Origin: Enterobacteria phage GiZh
Sequence record: NC_054903.1
Direction: 5' to 3' (one strand)
Length of the DNA: 64,000 nt
Shown here: one piece after another, positions 1,545 to 57,756 of the stretch
Layout of the letters: the number at the start of each line of letters is the position of its first letter
Numbering within the stretch: position 1 is the stretch's first letter
The notes under the pieces: generated by a model
What the model was told of the DNA's origin: nothing
The model's database searches: none
The model's input: the letters and a program-made list of their open reading frames with translations, nothing else
Translations under genes and position numbers: made by a program

Positions 1545-1735
1545 TTTGAATGCTCTATAATTAATTTTAAAGCTTCTTCACTGACAAAAATTTCGTCAGG
1601 ACCTTCTATAACTTCAACCATACGAAGTTGATTAGTTAAGAGCTCACATACGAGCTCCTTGTTATAATCTTTAAATAGCTGGTCAATACGTTTCTTATGG
1701 GCTTTCTTGAGCTGACGCTTATTTAAACGAGCCAT
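1541..1735 (-). CDS. hypothetical protein (soc.2 position)
   Basis: 64-aa ORF, overlapping stop/start junctions with neighbours. Confidence 0.5.
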   Translation of the reverse strand: MARLNKRQLKKAHKKRIDQLFKDYNKELVCELLTNQLRMVEVIEGPDEIFVSEEALKLIIEHSK

Positions 1736-2253
1736 TAATAACCTCGGTCTTGACGAGCGAAGTTTTCAGCATTTTTCAGATAATAAAGTTTAAATATTTC
1801 TTCAGCTGACATTCCAAGAGCAATGAATTTATTCATGAAAAAGTGAAATTGATCAATCAGTTCAAATTTAATTTCAAGCTGATCTTCAGGAGATAAATCT
1901 TGAATTTTCTTGGATTGCATTTCAGAATAACGTTTCTTCCAAGGTTTCCATACAGCAGAAGCTTCTTTTTCGCCATTACTCATACCACCGAGAGAAGTAT
2001 ATAGCTCGCGAGTTTCGTCTGCGATATAATCGTCTTGGTTTCGCAACCAAGCAAGAACTTCTCCCGCAGTTTCAAGTGAATCAGGATGACGATTTGTTTC
2101 TGGTTTATCATTAGCCAAACGAATCTGTAAATGCCGCTGCATGTCAAGCATAACCTGCAGTGGGTCAATATTGTGCATAATATTCTCAGCATATGCACGA
2201 TTTGCTTTATCAACACCTTCGATCAAATGAGCACATTCATTAAAGTAAGCCAT
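1735..2253 (-). CDS. 56: dCTP pyrophosphatase (dCTPase/dUTPase) gp56
   Basis: From internal ATG at 2253-2251 (RBS AAAGGAAA): MAYFNECAHLIEGVD...KNAENFARQDRGY, 172 aa, matches recalled T4 gp56; track N-terminal extension judged artifact. Confidence 0.85.
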   Translation of the reverse strand: MAYFNECAHLIEGVDKANRAYAENIMHNIDPLQVMLDMQRHLQIRLANDKPETNRHPDSLETAGEVLAWLRNQDDYIADETRELYTSLGGMSNGEKEASAVWKPWKKRYSEMQSKKIQDLSPEDQLEIKFELIDQFHFFMNKFIALGMSAEEIFKLYYLKNAENFARQDRGY

Positions 2254-2287
2254 TATTTTTCCTTTCAATTCATGGGTTAGTAGATTA

Positions 2288-2312
2288 ATTATACAATAAA
2301 TATATAAAGCAA
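2288..2312 (-). promoter_or_regulatory. candidate MotA-dependent middle promoter for gene 56
   Basis: minus-strand TTGCTTTA (MotA box) then ~11 nt then TATAAT, about 35 nt upstream of gene 56 ATG. Confidence 0.4.
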
Positions 2313-2324
2313 TAAGGAGGACAT

Positions 2325-2525
2325 ATGGTACAAAAATTAATGGCACTTGTTAATGCCATCAAAGGTAATAAGAAACGTATAGCTTTTACTATTTCTGCTA
2401 TGGTAGGAATTTTACTCTGGAACTTTATTTTATCACCAATTGCAATTGCACATGGTGTTAATATTCCAGTAGTTACTCTTGATACATTTGTAGATTTAGC
2501 ATTTGCTTTAGTTGGGTTAATTTAA
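2325..2525 (+). CDS. hypothetical small hydrophobic protein (opposite strand)
   Basis: ATG 2325 preceded by AAGGAGG at optimal spacing; 66 aa, hydrophobic; only plus-strand ORF with a strong RBS in the early region. Confidence 0.3.
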   Translation: MVQKLMALVNAIKGNKKRIAFTISAMVGILLWNFILSPIAIAHGVNIPVVTLDTFVDLAFALVGLI

Positions 2526-3550
2526 ATCTTAGCATATTTAGATAACCGCATTTTAGCCATCAACCCCTGGGCAATATTATTTTTCATATATTCCATAATT
2601 TGTTCAGGGGTTGCACCTTCCTTTCTAATCATATCATTAACATCTTTTGATTTCCAGGGAGATTTATCCCAAAACATAACCCTTTCTCCTGCATCAACTA
2701 ATTTAGTCATTCGCTTAATAGTGTCAGGATGACGAGGTTCATTATCTAAGACCCACACACGCCTATCTTTAAATGGAACAACTTCTAGGTCTAATTGACC
2801 ACCCGTAATAGCTATACCATTTTCAATAAAAAGTGAATCTATAGGTCCTTCTAAAACATATACATCACCATCTTTAACTCGTTCGACTCCATATATTTTT
2901 GTTGCCTCAGGATAAGCTTTGATGGTGATATATTTTTGAGGAGCATCTTTCTTTAATGCACGTCCTTGAAAAGACTCAGCTTTTCCATTAGCATTATAAA
3001 TTGGAATAACAAGACGAGGCTCAGAAATTTCCTTTTTGTATGTTCCCGGTGCTATGCTATTAACTAATTTAGGCCATTCAGTTGTAAACCAAAGATATTT
3101 CCATTTATCCTTTGGAATACAACGAGCTTTTACATATTTTATAATTGCATGGTCTTCCGCCAGTTTATCTAATCGAACACATGACGGAAGAGATTTAATT
3201 ATTTTCTTCTCAGGTTGTTTAGGAAGTTCTTTAGGTTTTTCTACTGGACGACTTTTACCTTTTTCTTTTCTTATTTCAAAGATATACTCACGATATAAAT
3301 CAGGTTCAAACTCCTTTAAATATATTCCGATTGGTGCATGATAGTTACAGTTATAACAATGAATATTTCCTTCATTATTATCACCATAATACCATCCACG
3401 AGCTTTATTCTGGTCGGTTTTTGAATCTCCACAAACAGGACATCTAAACCGTAATTTAAAAGTTGAACTATTATTTACTTGTGTGAATTTAGGTAAATGA
3501 GCTAATGCACGGTATGCAAACTCATTATCAATCCAAGGTATTGATGACAT
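2522..3550 (-). CDS. 61: DNA primase gp61
   Basis: 342 aa; MSSIPWIDNEFAYRALAHL..., zinc ribbon CPVCG...CYNC, TOPRIM-like VLDNEPRH; ATG verified at 3550-3548. Confidence 0.9.
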   Translation of the reverse strand: MSSIPWIDNEFAYRALAHLPKFTQVNNSSTFKLRFRCPVCGDSKTDQNKARGWYYGDNNEGNIHCYNCNYHAPIGIYLKEFEPDLYREYIFEIRKEKGKSRPVEKPKELPKQPEKKIIKSLPSCVRLDKLAEDHAIIKYVKARCIPKDKWKYLWFTTEWPKLVNSIAPGTYKKEISEPRLVIPIYNANGKAESFQGRALKKDAPQKYITIKAYPEATKIYGVERVKDGDVYVLEGPIDSLFIENGIAITGGQLDLEVVPFKDRRVWVLDNEPRHPDTIKRMTKLVDAGERVMFWDKSPWKSKDVNDMIRKEGATPEQIMEYMKNNIAQGLMAKMRLSKYAKI

Positions 3551-3713
3551 TTTTACTCTTCTTTTTCTTTAGATTCCTCTTTTTTTTAGGAATCTGTTCA
3601 GGACCTTTATTTACTACAGCGCCTGATGTTGTTCCAGTAGAGATATTTTCAGGATTACCACCTGAATCTCCAGCTACCATATCTTCTTTAATAAATTCTT
3701 TATATGTTTTCAT
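3528..3713 (-). CDS. small basic protein with capsid-targeting-like N-terminus
   Basis: ATG 3713-3711 with AGAGGT RBS; N-terminus MKTYKEFIKE; C-terminal KKKRNLKKKKSKN; 23-nt out-of-frame overlap with gene 61 start. Confidence 0.5.
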   Translation of the reverse strand: MKTYKEFIKEDMVAGDSGGNPENISTGTTSGAVVNKGPEQIPKKKRNLKKKKSKNVINTLD

Positions 3714-3714
3714 A

Positions 3715-4071
3715 TTAACCTCTATTCATAAAAGCATTAAAAATTTGGTCATCAATAGATGGAATAGCAACCTTTTCGGCATCATTTAGCAAATCATTAA
3801 TTTCATCAGATAGCATAACACATGTGCCTTTATTTCCTGTAATTGTTACTGCGCAATTACGAACGTTTTCTTTATCAAATTTTAGGTTAATATTTTCGTA
3901 GTGAAAATCCTTTAATGCCGAATATATCTTTAAAATGAAATTGTCTTTTACTACAATAAACCCAACCTCACTATTAAAACGCGGTTCATGGAAACTGTAA
4001 TAAACCTTTTCATCTATAAAATCGTATGAAATTTTTTCCATTTTTAAATATGAAAATTCAGAACTATACAT
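3715..4071 (-). CDS. hypothetical protein (61.1 position)
   Basis: 118 aa; ATG verified; C-terminus SIDDQIFNAFMNRG shared with next gene. Confidence 0.55.
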   Translation of the reverse strand: MYSSEFSYLKMEKISYDFIDEKVYYSFHEPRFNSEVGFIVVKDNFILKIYSALKDFHYENINLKFDKENVRNCAVTITGNKGTCVMLSDEINDLLNDAEKVAIPSIDDQIFNAFMNRG

Positions 4072-4072
4072 A

Positions 4073-4705
4073 TTAACCTTTATTCATAAAAGCATTAAAA
4101 ATTTGATCGTCAATAGAAACTTTTACTTTAGGCTGTTCTTCAAACGGTAATTCATATCCACATATTACAATTTTGTGATCGATACCAAAATACACAGAAG
4201 CAATATTATTAATATTATTTTCAGTGAAATCTAAATCAACATCAATATCTTTTTGACTAACGCTCAAAGGATAATTAATACGAATAATTCGATTATCTTT
4301 AACAAAGATTCCACCGACATACTCTGTGCTGCGTTTAAAGTTTACACGTTTCCTAAATGAAAAATATTCAGGTTCTTTATGCGCTCGACTCATAGGGCTT
4401 AAAGTGTATTCCGAATATGAAATATCAAATCCTACACCTTCAATATGAGCCAAAGTGTCATGATTAAACCAATTATAATCGTATGCCAAATCCATTAAAT
4501 TGTAATATGTGAAAGGCACCGGATTAACATCATATGTTGTACCTTTAAAATCTGCCCAGGCAACGATTTCGTTATCTTTAACAATTACAAAAATTGTGCC
4601 AATAAGATATCCACGGTTATTTTCATCAGGTGTTATATTATAACATTGTGCATCAGGAAATTTACCGTATTTAAACGGTGGATTTTTGTGCATATAATAA
4701 ATCAT
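4073..4705 (-). CDS. hypothetical protein (61.2 position), two internal repeats of a VKDN module
   Basis: 210 aa; ATG verified; GTIFVIVKDNEIV and GGIFVKDNRIIRI modules; C-terminus SIDDQIFNAFMNKG. Confidence 0.55.
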   Translation of the reverse strand: MIYYMHKNPPFKYGKFPDAQCYNITPDENNRGYLIGTIFVIVKDNEIVAWADFKGTTYDVNPVPFTYYNLMDLAYDYNWFNHDTLAHIEGVGFDISYSEYTLSPMSRAHKEPEYFSFRKRVNFKRSTEYVGGIFVKDNRIIRINYPLSVSQKDIDVDLDFTENNINNIASVYFGIDHKIVICGYELPFEEQPKVKVSIDDQIFNAFMNKG

Positions 4706-4706
4706 A

Positions 4707-5000
4707 TTATTCGCCTGTGATTTCGGTTACGATATTTTTGTTATTAAAGTTTTTATCGCAATACAGAACATAATTATACTGCATTACACCACCAGACTTA
4801 AGCTGTTTTTGTACTTCAGCTTTCATTTCAGGACGATCGCGCTCAACGATATTCATAATATCCGCTTCAATTTGAGTTTCAACTTCAGTCTGATCTGCAG
4901 TCATAGACCATTCACACAAATCTTTATCATAGCCTGCCATAGCAGGCTGAGCAGCACAAGAAGCCAAAGTAAAAATTGTAGCAAAAATAAATTTTTTCAT
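4707..5000 (-). CDS. sp: Spackle-like periplasmic protein
   Basis: 97 aa with signal peptide MKKFIFATIFTLASCAAQPAMA; size and position between 61 and dmd as in T4. Confidence 0.75.
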   Translation of the reverse strand: MKKFIFATIFTLASCAAQPAMAGYDKDLCEWSMTADQTEVETQIEADIMNIVERDRPEMKAEVQKQLKSGGVMQYNYVLYCDKNFNNKNIVTEITGE

Positions 5001-5060
5001 GATAATCTCCTCAGTAGTTTATGTTTATATAGTATCTCAATTTCCAACAAAAGTAAACAG

Positions 5061-5318
5061 CTATTTTAAAACTTCTGCGTAATCACATGTTACAAACTGT
5101 TTCTCTAGCTTAACGATTTTACGAAAATGCCTTTTACACTGACGAATCTGCCTCTTCGTAGGACGTACAACAAACTTAATAAATTCCACTCGACCAAATG
5201 GAGGACTTTCTTCTGCTGGAATATCTAACACCAATTCCCATGTATCCGCAATAAGCGCTTTGAATTGCGTATTTTTCCTGACGTTATACGGAGTAGGTTT
5301 AAATAAAACAATATGCAT
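5061..5318 (-). CDS. hypothetical protein (61.4 position)
   Basis: 85-aa ORF, ATG verified, 2-nt gap to dmd. Confidence 0.5.
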   Translation of the reverse strand: MHIVLFKPTPYNVRKNTQFKALIADTWELVLDIPAEESPPFGRVEFIKFVVRPTKRQIRQCKRHFRKIVKLEKQFVTCDYAEVLK

Positions 5319-5319
5319 A

Positions 5320-5502
5320 TTATCCTCGGCAATCTACTTCACATACTTTCTTGTCATCAATGAAAGCTTTAACTAATGCTTTATTAACTTCAGCATATTG
5401 AGTAGTAGCCCATTGAACGTCATCTTTCATCATTGTGATTTCTTTAGTAAACATGCTTTCATTCTTAAACCACCCCATAAAAACTACCTTTACCAATTCC
5501 AT
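5320..5502 (-). CDS. dmd: Dmd antitoxin-type protein (discrimination of mRNA degradation)
   Basis: 60 aa MELVKVVFMGWFKNESMFTKEITMMKDDVQWATTQYAEVNKALVKAFIDDKKVCEVDCRG; size and position match T4 Dmd. Confidence 0.8.
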   Translation of the reverse strand: MELVKVVFMGWFKNESMFTKEITMMKDDVQWATTQYAEVNKALVKAFIDDKKVCEVDCRG

Positions 5503-5531: not shown

Positions 5532-5561
5532 ACTATACCATAGTCTTGTCAGCTTGTAAAC
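5532..5561 (-). promoter_or_regulatory. T4-type early promoter upstream of dmd
   Basis: minus strand: AT-rich UP, GTTTACA, 17-nt spacer, TATAGT. Confidence 0.5.
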
Positions 5562-6988
5562 TAAAATTTTAATTCATTTGCCAAAGCATCTAACTGAGCT
5601 CGAGCGGATTCGTTTCTTTGATAGCGATTCTGTTCAGCCTGAATCTGCTGTGAACCTGCTACTTCGTTCACTTCAGTTGGAGTAGAATCTTGTTCAATTT
5701 CTACCCATTTTTGATTTCCTTTTTGAACACCCATCAAAAACTTATTCCACTTATTCTTATCACCATATCGTGATTTGATTTGCTTAATAAGTTGTTGTTC
5801 AGCAGCTGCCAACTCCTCGGTTTCAATGACCGCAAGCATAAAATCGGCTGTCGCTGGAAGACCAGCAGATTCTGCGATATCACTCATGTTAACATCAGAA
5901 GAATCCCAAGCTTGTTTACCAACCTGTGCTGCAGTCCAAAGAACAGTTTCGGTTTCAACAGCAAGAGCACGCAATTCCTCTGCAATAGCTTTAACAGTTG
6001 TGTAACTATTTTCTGAATAAACTCTAATGCGGCAAGATTTACAAATACCTAGATAGTCGACAATAATGATTGTTGGAACAAAATTCTTTTTGAGCTTCAA
6101 TTCATTCAAGAGAGACCTGAATGTGTTAGCATCTGCTCCACCAGTAGGGTACTGTTTAACGATTAAACGACCAAGAGTAGATTTCTCACGCCATTTTTCC
6201 ATTTTTCCTTTATACTCAGCGTAAGAAATATGTCCATCATCAATATCGTCAAGAGAAACATCGAGCATGTTAGCATCAATACGTTTAGCACAGACTTCTT
6301 CTGCCATTTCCATGGAAATGTAAAGAACATTATGTCCGAGCTGTAAATAATCTGCTGCCAATGAACACAATCCTAATGACTTACCAACGTTAACGCCAGC
6401 CATTAAAACGTTCAGCGTTCCAGTTTCAGCTCCGCCTTTCGTAATTTTGTTTAGAATTCTGAGTTTAAATGGAACCTTACGAGCTTTATTCATATAAGAT
6501 AGCCAACGTGCTTCGTAGTCATCCATCCAATCATGACCAACGTAGCTATCAAATGAAATTGATAATGCTTGACGCATGATGTCAGGAATAGCACCAACAT
6601 CCGGCATTTTCTTATTTCGTTTTTCCGGAGGAAGCTCAGCATTAGTTTGAATTTCGATTATTTTAGACGTAGCATTAAACATCGCCCTTTGCTGAACATA
6701 TTTTTCTGTTTCTTTTACTAACCAGCTGTGGTCTTCTGGAGAATCGGCTAGTTTTGAAATAAGTGTTTTTACACCAGAATATTCCGTTTCAGTAAATGAA
6801 CTATTTTCTAATGCAACATTTAACGCATTAATAGATGGAACGCTATGATACTCATTAACATGAGATTTAATTAATTTGAATGTATTTTTAGCTGGACCAC
6901 TTTCAAAATATTCTGAATCCATATATGGCCAAACTTTTGAAAAATAAGCTTGATCAAATATGAGATGAGAAAGAATAATTTCTACCAC
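5561..6988 (-). CDS. 41: replicative DNA helicase gp41 (DnaB-like)
   Basis: 475 aa; Walker A GVNVGKS; MVEIILSHLIFDQAYF...; apparent GTG start. Confidence 0.95.
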   Translation of the reverse strand: MVEIILSHLIFDQAYFSKVWPYMDSEYFESGPAKNTFKLIKSHVNEYHSVPSINALNVALENSSFTETEYSGVKTLISKLADSPEDHSWLVKETEKYVQQRAMFNATSKIIEIQTNAELPPEKRNKKMPDVGAIPDIMRQALSISFDSYVGHDWMDDYEARWLSYMNKARKVPFKLRILNKITKGGAETGTLNVLMAGVNVGKSLGLCSLAADYLQLGHNVLYISMEMAEEVCAKRIDANMLDVSLDDIDDGHISYAEYKGKMEKWREKSTLGRLIVKQYPTGGADANTFRSLLNELKLKKNFVPTIIIVDYLGICKSCRIRVYSENSYTTVKAIAEELRALAVETETVLWTAAQVGKQAWDSSDVNMSDIAESAGLPATADFMLAVIETEELAAAEQQLIKQIKSRYGDKNKWNKFLMGVQKGNQKWVEIEQDSTPTEVNEVAGSQQIQAEQNRYQRNESARAQLDALANELKF

Positions 6989-49145: not shown

Positions 49146-49619
49146 TTATTTGAACGATTTAACGTACTGAATAGAACCTTTACTATTCACAAAGGCAATT
49201 TTACCATTTTTATTATACATGGTAGCAGTACGTTGATAACCATAAGTTTGTTTACCAGATTGATAACCAACTAATGCGAAATTATCTTCGCCCATTTTAT
49301 TCTGTTTAGCGCGAATGCGTTCATGACCATGTGCCATAAGAACCTTAGCATCACCAGTTGCAATGGATCGACGAGTTTTTTCATCTTCAACTGTATTAAC
49401 AAAGTCGTCAAATGAATCAAATTTAGCATGAGATTTATTATACAATTTTCCATCTACTGCATAATTATATCCCTGTACATCCATCTCAACTTCTGTACCA
49501 TCATCCAATACAGCAGTGATTTTTTGACCTTTTTTAAATTTCAAAAGATCAGTAAAAGATTCAGCAATAATTTGAGAATTAATAGCTGCTTCAGTGATAA
49601 ATTCTTGATATGTTTTCAT
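49146..49619 (-). CDS. internal protein candidate (capsid-targeting-like N-terminus)
   Basis: 157 aa; N-terminus MKTYQEFITEA matches the recalled CTS of T4 internal proteins. Confidence 0.6.
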   Translation of the reverse strand: MKTYQEFITEAAINSQIIAESFTDLLKFKKGQKITAVLDDGTEVEMDVQGYNYAVDGKLYNKSHAKFDSFDDFVNTVEDEKTRRSIATGDAKVLMAHGHERIRAKQNKMGEDNFALVGYQSGKQTYGYQRTATMYNKNGKIAFVNSKGSIQYVKSFK

Positions 49620-54480: not shown

Positions 54481-54954
54481 TTATTTGATTTGTTTAGCAG
54501 ACCAAATGCGGTCTTTAATAATTTTTTGGATGTCTTCAACATATTCAAGAGAGTGAACATGTGGGTTATCTTTGAAACTATAAGCACGAGCTAGCTTTTG
54601 GCCTTCAGTTTTAATTACTAAAAGCTCTTTAAGGATAGCTTCATATTTGGAGATAATTCCTTTAACAATATTTTTCTCTTGTGCGACTTTAGGATCTGCT
54701 TTAGGAGCAGGTTTACCTGAAGCCTTTGCAAAAGCAGCTCCAGTAGCAACTAAACTTTTCCAGGCCATACTAACTGCATTTCCCGTAAATCCTTCCGCTT
54801 TCATATCGCGAGCAAATTGGAATCGTGACTCATCGGAAGCATCTTTATAGGAATATTTACCCGCGGCAATGGCAGCTTTTGCAACAGCTTGAATTTCAGT
54901 GCTAGATGCTTCATTTAACACCGCTTCATTTAAAAATTGAGCATATGATTTCAT
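54481..54954 (-). CDS. internal protein candidate (capsid-targeting-like N-terminus)
   Basis: 157 aa; N-terminus MKSYAQFLNEA; Ala/Lys-rich; own late promoter and terminators on both sides. Confidence 0.55.
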   Translation of the reverse strand: MKSYAQFLNEAVLNEASSTEIQAVAKAAIAAGKYSYKDASDESRFQFARDMKAEGFTGNAVSMAWKSLVATGAAFAKASGKPAPKADPKVAQEKNIVKGIISKYEAILKELLVIKTEGQKLARAYSFKDNPHVHSLEYVEDIQKIIKDRIWSAKQIK

Positions 54955-54990: not shown

Positions 54991-54998
54991 TATTTATA
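54991..54998 (-). promoter_or_regulatory. late promoter (TATAAATA)
   Basis: plus tatttata about 40 nt upstream of ATG at 54954. Confidence 0.5.
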
Positions 54999-57158: not shown

Positions 57159-57189
57159 ATAGTATCACTACCCTATCTAAAAGTAAACT
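57159..57189 (-). promoter_or_regulatory. T4-type early promoter
   Basis: minus strand GTTTACT, 17 nt, TACTAT. Confidence 0.5.
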
Positions 57190-57422
57190 TATTTTTTACG
57201 AAAAATTGATTTATTTTCTGCTGCCCATTTTTCAATAACTGCAGCAGGACCAGTAACAACAATTTTATCACCGTAATCTTCTGCGGCGAGTTGACCGAAA
57301 TTATCTAATGCATCACGAAGAACTCCATGAGGCATTTCACCCATTTTATCTTTCTTGCCGGTGTAAATAAACTCAACTTTTACATCAGAAGATTCAGCGA
57401 TAAACTCTTTGAAAGTTTTCAT
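57189..57422 (-). CDS. internal protein I-like (capsid-targeting N-terminus)
   Basis: ATG 57422-57420 gives MKTFKEFIAESSDVKVEF... (77 aa); track start 57488 is TTG inside the promoter -35; position upstream of 57B/57A as T4 ipI. Confidence 0.6.
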   Translation of the reverse strand: MKTFKEFIAESSDVKVEFIYTGKKDKMGEMPHGVLRDALDNFGQLAAEDYGDKIVVTGPAAVIEKWAAENKSIFRKK

Positions 57423-57498: not shown

Positions 57499-57756
57499 TT
57501 ATTTTAAATCTTCTAATCGTTTCTTCATCTTAGAACCATTTTTAGCAATTTCTCCTGCATCTGAGCATAATGCTAAAAGCGCTTTAACTTTAGTTTGGTC
57601 TCCTTTAAAAGATGAAGGATCGACTGCAGCAGCAAGTTCTTTAATACGAGAGAAAAGACGCTCAGCTTCAGCTAAAGCCATTCCAAGCTTTACTTCCATA
57701 CCGTGGGAAGATTCGGTGATAGTAGTTTTTGTAGCAAACTCTTTGAAAGTTTTCAT
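57499..57756 (-). CDS. internal protein candidate (capsid-targeting-like N-terminus)
   Basis: 85 aa; N-terminus MKTFKEFATKT; ATG verified; own early promoter. Confidence 0.55.
   Translation of the reverse strand: MKTFKEFATKTTITESSHGMEVKLGMALAEAERLFSRIKELAAAVDPSSFKGDQTKVKALLALCSDAGEIAKNGSKMKKRLEDLK

Follow-up and report, generated by a model that had tools for sequence, protein, structure and literature searches.

A homolog of the gp23 cleavage junction in the gene 61.1 product of Enterobacteria phage GiZh

The 64,000-nucleotide stretch of Enterobacteria phage GiZh studied here (NC_054903.1; hereafter the window) comes from a Tequatrovirus (T4-type) genome and carries, at positions 3528..3713 of its minus strand, a 61-residue open reading frame (ORF) whose 1-kb surroundings match 508 phage records, the closest being those of BECP11, wV7, RB51 and AR1 (98.3–98.6% identity). 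This ORF is real and is the ortholog of T4 gene 61.1 (NP_049649), which encodes a protein of 54 residues, gp61.1, annotated without a function. It had initially been picked out, from the DNA alone, for a leader resembling the capsid targeting sequence (CTS) of the T4 internal proteins (IPs) and for a Lys-rich tail; that observation is partly confirmed here, and its interpretation is partly supported. Our analysis indicates that the protein also contains a copy of the junction at which the prohead protease gp21 cleaves the major capsid protein gp23 into gp23*. The features of the gene and its immediate surroundings are the following, with the evidence in parentheses.

3719..3722, minus strand: Shine-Dalgarno sequence GAGG, 5 nt 5' of the 61.1 ATG (read directly from the sequence)
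3528..3713, minus strand: gene 61.1 ortholog, 61 aa, ATG start (ORF list, phrog_1823, alignments, synteny)
3684..3713, minus strand: CTS-like leader MKTYKEFIKE, codons 1–10, ending in I-K-E (8/10 identity to the IPIII CTS; hhalign onto gp23)
3588..3683, minus strand: conserved module DMVAGDSGGNPENISTGTTSGAVVNKGPEQIP, residues 11–42, homologous to gp23* 66–97, that is, the N-fist and the start of the N-arm (BLASTP, shuffles, hhalign, PDB search)
3580..3587, minus strand: A8 run, the frameshift site, 4 nt fewer than in T4, RB51 and JLBYU31 (alignment columns 158–161)
3528..3579, minus strand: out-of-frame tail …RNLKKKKSKNVINTLD and stop, the last 23 nt overlapping gene 61 (frameshift alignment)
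2522..3550, minus strand: gene 61, DNA primase, immediately downstream of 61.1 (ORF list, T4/RB51 comparison, tblastn synteny)

The window protein matches phrog_1823, the family of T4 gp61.1 (also named 'T4 GC1491'), with an E-value of 2.1e-32 over residues 1–53 of the 54-position profile, and matches the C-terminal 46 positions of phrog_2086, which groups longer forms, with an E-value of 3.6e-16. Its residues 1–45 are 96–100% identical to those of RB51 and T4 61.1, and the gene occupies the same strand and the same place, directly upstream of gene 61, with the same ribosome-binding site. It differs from the T4 gene in that the last 9 residues are replaced by a 16-residue Lys-rich tail and in its overlap with gene 61. 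As the original prediction had stated, the ORF has its own ATG start and ribosome-binding site, and overlaps gene 61 out of frame by 23 nt (3528..3550); the TAA stop codon of the upstream ORF sits within the Shine-Dalgarno spacer, 1 nt before the 61.1 ATG. The suggestion that it is an extra gene did not survive alignment with 61.1 of T4, RB51 and JLBYU31, which identifies it as their ortholog. It is correct that the interval between genes 41 and 61 holds six ORFs here against five in T4, but the supernumerary one lies at 3715..4071.

A Pfam search with both the window ORF and T4 61.1 returned no family, and the literature searched, in which gp61.1 is mentioned in passing, gave neither a function for it nor a relation to gp23. 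Automatic database names alone hint at such a relation ('major capsid domain-containing protein'). The gp61.1 family is one that is already annotated and uncharacterised; what is new is its copy of the gp23 cleavage junction together with the N-arm/N-fist.

Judged from sequence comparison, residues 2–42 of gp61.1 are homologous to residues ~57–101 of gp23, a segment that spans the gp21 site E65|A66 and the N-arm/N-fist. BLASTP aligned residues 2–38 of T4 gp61.1 to residues 57–93 of T4 gp23 without gaps, at 46% identity and with a pairwise E-value of 6e-9; over 32–45 ungapped residues, identity between the two proteins is about 41–59%. The score was not reached by any of 3000 shuffles (z about 12), and eight divergent long forms aligned independently onto the same segment of gp23. 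Profile–profile comparison by hhalign with the gp23 N-termini of eight Straboviridae scored the long forms at 98.3% (E 1.7e-14) and the short forms of T-even phages at 97.5% (E 8e-12), and placed the leader on gp23 55–65, IAQAFGSFLTE. In addition, an hmmsearch of 177,635 PDB sequences returned T4 gp23 chains as the only significant matches, with E-values of 3.4e-11 and 1.2e-5. The alignment sets FIKE|DMVAGD of gp61.1 on FLTE|AEIGGD of gp23, where gp21 cuts behind Glu65 during maturation and gp23* begins; the register is identical in both, the G of GD standing five residues after the P1 Glu. When 1.84 billion representatives were searched with a profile, 50 relatives were recovered, none of capsid-protein length; the link to gp23 thus lies below the threshold of that search, and pairwise, profile–profile and PDB searches are needed to detect it.

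The resemblance is restricted in extent. No HK97-fold A or P domain and no near full-length similarity to gp23 was found in the 61-residue protein, all matches lying within gp23 47–103 and Pfam giving none; since the match is limited to residues ~57–101, gp61.1 is not a capsid protein, and the database label 'major capsid domain-containing protein' exaggerates its relationship to gp23. Besides sharing the register of the cleavage Glu, the two segments are alike in being disordered on their own (as modelled by AlphaFold2 for gp61.1; PMC9546572 for gp23). They differ in that gp61.1 is without the HK97-fold body, has no homology to the Delta-domain, is expressed early, and carries a basic patch after the module where gp23 has MVRRAIPN. 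We also considered whether the N-terminal domain of the long forms could be a homolog of the gp23 Delta-domain, and rejected this, as hhalign aligns their C-terminal module only and not gp23 1–56.

In the unexpanded head, residues 66–105 of gp23 are disordered on the inside and 'probably interact with the scaffolding core' (PMC9546572), and they bear the head-length mutations A66D, A94V and G97S (PMC9958956, PMC9546572). Expansion brings the segment to the outside as the N-arm and an 'N-fist' of 25 residues, the latter connecting four subunits and contributing to the Soc site (PMC9958956, PMC9546572). The AlphaFold2 model of the window protein shows a helix at residues 4–13 and disorder elsewhere, at low confidence (pLDDT 61), which fits both the disorder of gp23 66–105 and a segment that becomes ordered only when docked. 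gp61.1 is a small, intrinsically disordered protein, whose pre-cleavage part has, in T-even phages, the form of a 10-residue CTS.

Some observations on gp23 itself may be added. Its pre-cleavage segment, [AS]F.[GS]F[LI].E|, resembles the IP CTS, [TS][YF].EF[IL].E| (gp23 N-termini and loci L004 and L008–L015). The N-fist segment is largely absent from the gp23 of cyanophage S-RIM2. A gp23 match is present in 388 Synechococcus phages, a group that does not figure in the top ten organisms by frequency in the search with the gp61.1 long form. The Gol region (gp23 ~93–122) lies just past the segment matched by gp61.1, and Gol/Lit mimicry was set aside as improbable on this ground.

The leader MKTYKEFIKE is identical at 8 of 10 positions to MKTYQEFIAE, the CTS of T4 IPI, IPII and IPIII (Mullaney and Black 1996, summarised in PMC9026906). 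Mutagenesis of the IPIII CTS has assigned the control of targeting to positions 4 and 7, and that of processing to positions 8 and 10 (PMC9026906, section 2.6). All four are identical in 61.1: the targeting determinants, aromatic Y4 and Phe F7, are both present, as is the gp21 processing motif L/I-x-E at positions 8–10 (I8-K9-E10). The likeness to the IP CTS that had been noted in the original prediction is thus borne out. We predict that gp21 cleaves gp61.1 after Glu10, and the peptide so generated, from Asp11 onward, would include DMVAGDSGGNPENIS[T/I]GTTSGAVVNK.

As had been reported, the same pattern opens four other ORFs of the window, and three of these four match PHROG families of internal virion or head proteins. 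These IP-type genes with CTS leaders are:

49146..49619, minus strand: leader MKTYQEFITE, starting at 49619
54481..54954, minus strand: leader MKSYAQFLNE, starting at 54954
57189..57422, minus strand: leader MKTFKEFIAE, starting at 57422
57499..57756, minus strand: leader MKTFKEFATK, starting at 57756

The 157-aa ORF at 54481..54954 falls into phrog_2280, a PHROG of unknown function. A strict form of the motif, MK[TSA][YFW]x[ED][FVLIMY][LIVM]xE, has 3 matches in the six-frame translation of the window, compared to ~0.0007 expected and 0 in 200 shuffles, a number so far above expectation that the resemblance of the leaders is not due to chance. The matches of the window protein to IP families (phrog_5341, phrog_2667) are weak and confined to the leader (E 0.08–0.16, residues 1–24), and 61.1 is therefore no member of an annotated IP family. 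At the DNA level, its leader shares 25 of 30 nt with that of the IP gene starting at 49619 and nothing upstream of it, so that recombination is indistinguishable from shared codon choice. Other differences from the IPs are that the cargo behind the leader is a copy of a capsid protein N-terminus of 44–51 aa and not a folded basic protein, and that 61.1 lies outside the IP loci, without a nearby late promoter. Some orthologs, moreover, replace the leader by a ~100-aa domain or an unrelated N-terminus, retaining L-x-E.

The original prediction had regarded homologs without the leader as a sign that the N-terminal similarity is coincidental. Such homologs do occur (P0016, L037/L038 and the ~150-aa long forms without MKTY), and they keep L-x-E in the same register; the similarity is thus not a coincidence. 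gp67, gp68 and peptides II and VII of T4 also bear comparison with gp61.1, which is likewise small, charged and predicted to be processed by gp21 at L/I-x-E; none of them shows sequence similarity to gp61.1 in any search, and they differ from it in being proven core components encoded in the late head cluster.

Conservation in the wider family falls on the module and on the cleavage positions. Among 15 relatives found by a word-indexed search there is no variation in 18 columns, which lie almost entirely within the core of residues 11–42, and the tails are variable; the module and the position of the gene are conserved across several Straboviridae genera, at 52–96% identity. Many of the 50 relatives mentioned above are long forms of 120–165 aa (phrog_2086), in which a conserved N-domain of ~100 aa is followed by [L/I/M/F]-x-E, the same module and a C-terminal basic patch. 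A long-form query finds matches in 851 phage records, and neither Pfam nor PHROGs gives a function for the N-domain. In short forms from other lineages the N-terminus is often a CTS-like leader (MKTIKELIE, MIKFKDFVE and MKTFNEFLKE are examples), and in a few it is unrelated, as in MTILQQYLDSLNE. With the module as anchor of the alignment, 38/38 sequences of the family have Glu at P1 and 33/38 have L, I, M or F at P3, while no single residue exceeds 7/38 at P2 or at P4–P10. An unvarying Glu at P1 and a hydrophobic P3, in the register of gp23, hold for more than 60 relatives, both short forms and long forms of ~150 aa. P1 and P3 are exactly the CTS positions that control gp21 processing (10 and 8, respectively). 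This is the pattern expected from selection for cleavage by the prohead protease, and is the main argument for gp61.1 being a gp21 substrate; the retention of [L/I/M/F]-x-E before the module in essentially all relatives makes a link to the head and its protease plausible.

The gene is also conserved in its location. By tblastn synteny it adjoins gene 61 on the upstream side in 26 loci belonging to several genera, the position having been checked in T4, RB51, PX29, PMBT1, fHyAci03, RB43, GEC-3S and 21 IMG/VR loci. In Aeromonas phage PX29 a long form, annotated gp61.1, is the sole gene between 41 and 61, and long forms are likewise found upstream of gene 61 in Acinetobacter phage fHyAci03, RB43 and Klebsiella Slopekviruses. 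The long forms are positional orthologs of 61.1. In P0060, P0074 and P0078 (and also in P0064, P0081 and P0086) a second CTS-like element (M.E..FKQFVE, KKTFDEFV, KSFLEF) stands right after the basic patch, followed in three cases by a further domain of ~100 aa; by appearance these relatives consist of CTS-led modules that were fused or repeated in tandem.

The C-terminus of the window protein has a different history. The last residues of the usual 61.1 allele are KKKKEESKEKEE, and its stop is separated from the gene 61 ATG by 2 nt. Here, alignment with T4, RB51 and JLBYU31 shows that 4 bases are missing from the run CCTAAAAAGAAAAAAGAGG, and the resulting frameshift turns KKKKEESKEKEE-stop into KKKRNLKKKKSKNVINTLD-stop; the deletion thus accounts both for the Lys-rich tail KKKRNLKKKKSKNVINTLD and for the 23-nt run into gene 61. 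It occurs in 0 of 501 matching phage records, none of which is at least 99% identical and the best of which span 245 nt where the window has 241, and the exact 61-aa protein is absent from a collection of 15 billion proteins. T6-type phages arrive at the shifted frame through a different indel: their 62-aa protein (P0001), with one more Lys, is found in at least 17 contigs, compared to well over 1,400 for the 54-aa T4-type allele. The shifted frame is thus tolerated in nature, albeit as a minority state, and the deletion in this genome may be either a private mutation or a homopolymer sequencing error. In the relatives a short basic patch, KKKK or KKRK, is kept after the module, and the tails otherwise differ freely. 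The description of the protein beyond its leader as largely a Lys-rich tail therefore gives way to that of a conserved Gly/Ser/Thr-rich module (residues 11–42) with a tail produced by a deletion.

The genes that lie upstream of 61.1, up to gene 41, are the following.

3715..4071, minus strand: 118-aa ORF, truncated paralog of AdfA/gp61.2 (PF23813, phrog_4122)
4073..4705, minus strand: 61.2/adfA, full-length AdfA
4707..5000, minus strand: sp (spackle)
5061..5318, minus strand: 61.4/tifA
5320..5502, minus strand: dmd
5561..6988, minus strand: gene 41

Residues 22–118 of the 118-aa ORF match positions 113–211 of the PF23813 profile (E 2e-8), the C-terminal half of the AdfA profile, and its C-terminus, SIDDQIFNAFMN[RK]G, is nearly the same as in the full-length AdfA at 4073..4705. 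Its RB51 counterpart is annotated RB32ORF033c, 'similar to gp61.2', and the ORF is present in phages of the RB51/RB32 type and absent from T4. This AdfA fragment, and not 61.1, is the extra ORF of the 41–61 interval relative to T4. The proposed 'anti-TA (toxin–antitoxin) island' of T4, composed of dmd, tifA/61.4, spackle and adfA/61.2, is intact at 4073..5502 on the minus strand; among the 21 IMG/VR loci and the named phages, dmd, tifA, sp and adfA are variably present around a conserved 61.1. Sigma-70-like matches in a promoter scan were not enriched over shuffles, and the sole convincing site, of the early type, is a strong one with an extended -10 upstream of dmd (5560..5532). Gene 40, which acts in head assembly at the initiation of the head vertex, shares the early cluster with 61.1.

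Between genes 56 and 61 (1735..2525), neither the dam methyltransferase nor the segF homing endonuclease gene is found, T4 having both; this gap is occupied by a 66-aa hydrophobic ORF of the RB32ORF030w type on the plus strand (2325..2525). Opposite 61.1 and the last part of the 118-aa ORF, the plus strand has a Phe/Leu-rich ORF of 94 aa (3505..3789), which does not resemble a gene so much as an antisense shadow cast by A-rich coding sequence.

Based on the sequence evidence, gp61.1 may work like, and possibly is, a gp21 substrate with a CTS. We consider it a credible proposal, still somewhat short of probable, that gp61.1 mimics the N-terminus of the capsid protein, associates with the prohead and is processed by gp21. 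In the mechanism that we infer, gp61.1 would be made early from the uvsX-40-41-...-61 transcription unit, persist into late infection, and join the assembling prohead core in the way that the CTS and the N-terminal region of gp23 do, through the same contacts. gp21 would then cut it after Glu10, freeing a peptide of ~44 aa (51 aa in this allele) composed of the N-fist-like module and the basic patch, which would either act in head assembly or maturation, competing with or replacing gp23 N-termini, or stay as an internal peptide. The presence of gene 40 in the same early cluster means that a head role for 61.1 is not out of place. A more specific version, which we regard as unlikely, has gp61.1 acting in trans: after CTS-like entry into the prohead and cleavage by gp21, the peptide would fill N-fist sites that lack a gp23 neighbour, by gp24 pentons or the portal, or tune the gp23–scaffold contacts that set head length. 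Its corollary, included in that same low estimate, is that the IPs would owe their CTS to the part of the capsid protein ahead of the cleavage site, gp61.1 being the intermediate that survives.

Several results weigh against a location of gp61.1 in the prohead. The T4 61.1 transcript is classed as early, and its proteomic class is 'none', in the supplement to a time-resolved omics study. No late promoter TATAAATA is found on the coding strand over 3713–43778, the 40 kb upstream of 61.1; the IP gene starting at 54954 has a canonical one (TATAAATA) at 54991..54998. The gene adjoins replication genes and the anti-toxin island, and not the head cluster or the IP loci. In a T4 head mass-spectrometry study and the supplements searched with it gp61.1 receives no mention, although gel-based work could easily miss a peptide of 4–5 kDa; no virion proteome is given in the fHyAci03 paper, and a general literature search for virion proteomes of T4-like phages gave nothing usable. 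Covariation between the gp61.1 module and the gp23 N-fist of the same lineage, over five genera, was not significant, the observed value being reached in 15 of 120 permutations, and nothing points to recent gene conversion or co-evolution of gp61.1 with gp23. Finally, gp21 expressed alone cleaves a cytoplasmic CD-NTase of the CBASS immune system at an L-x-E loop, activating it (preprint, PMC12991175), and a conserved gp21 site is thus no proof of a prohead location.

Some of these points lend weight to a mimic that remains unpackaged. An early, soluble copy of the gp23 junction could be a competitive substrate or regulator that restrains free gp21 before proheads exist, and could thereby protect against protease-sensing immunity (CBASS CdnG), or it could compete with the N-terminal segment of gp23 for a binding partner of host or phage origin. 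Such a role agrees with the early transcript class and the lack of a nearby late promoter, as well as with the L-x-E cut in the CD-NTase, which shows that gp21 can be active when free in the cytoplasm and that hosts sense this; a substrate mimic would also be expected to conserve, as gp61.1 does, the gp23 cleavage site together with its P' side. The proposed anti-TA island next door (dmd/tifA/adfA) makes a decoy attractive, but the breadth of 61.1 conservation across Straboviridae genera, unlike that of the variable anti-defence genes adjoining it, makes it less so. Moreover, the leader keeps the targeting positions 4 and 7, beyond those for processing, and no experiment ties 61.1 to any defence system. 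Similarity of gp61.1 to the anti-toxin factors Dmd, TifA or AdfA was not seen in the searches made, which did not include the padloc library: it has no Pfam family, and AdfA is matched by its neighbours only. We thus view an unpackaged decoy as possible but rather doubtful.

We rank the three remaining explanations lower, since it is the gp23-like module with the cleavage positions, and not the tail, that is under selection. gp61.1 could be a small basic protein that works with the primase–helicase, binding DNA or loading the primase through its basic patch, with the likeness to gp23 as a relic. Early expression, the KKKK/KKRK patch conserved after the module, and the invariable adjacency and co-orientation with gene 61, often with translational coupling, would suit such a role, but synteny is conserved in T4-like phages in general, which makes the adjacency weak functional evidence; the residues conserved most are those shared with gp23 together with P1 and P3, conservation is lowest in the basic tail, where frameshifts are tolerated, and a head gene, gene 40, is in the same cluster. 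We judge this improbable. The version put forward originally, in which the Lys-rich tail is functional DNA-binding cargo carried by the CTS into the head and injected with the DNA, draws on the CTS-like leader and on the basic patch present in all relatives. The long tail, being a frameshift product, is found only here and in the minority T6-type allele, the common allele ending in the mixed or acidic KKKKEESKEKEE, and tails vary freely among relatives whose gp23-like module is nearly invariant; a small DNA-binding peptide of this kind is very unlikely. It is less likely still, to the point of being barely tenable, that the ORF is dead, either a non-functional leftover or annotation artefact, or a pseudogene here by frameshift or sequencing error. 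It is true that a 4-nt indel unique to this sequence, in a homopolymer-rich stretch, alters the C-terminus, but the frameshift leaves the whole module intact and a tail of similar charge, T6-type contigs have the same frame, and module and position are conserved over several genera at the identities given above.

Few small ORFs of T4-type phages are conserved as widely as gene 61.1, and its copy of the gp23 junction and N-arm/N-fist provides a concrete and testable hypothesis for it. The Lys-rich tail and the primase overlap in this genome are an ordinary private frameshift that should not be over-interpreted; the mimicry of the capsid protein, rather than the frameshifted tail, is the part worth experiment. 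The finding bears on how the CTS works and on its origin, on the choice of substrates by gp21 and how the protease is kept off them, and on the unassigned peptide densities in reconstructions of the T4 head. If, instead, gp61.1 were a cytoplasmic decoy, 61.1 would represent a new type of counter-measure to immunity that senses the phage protease or capsid.

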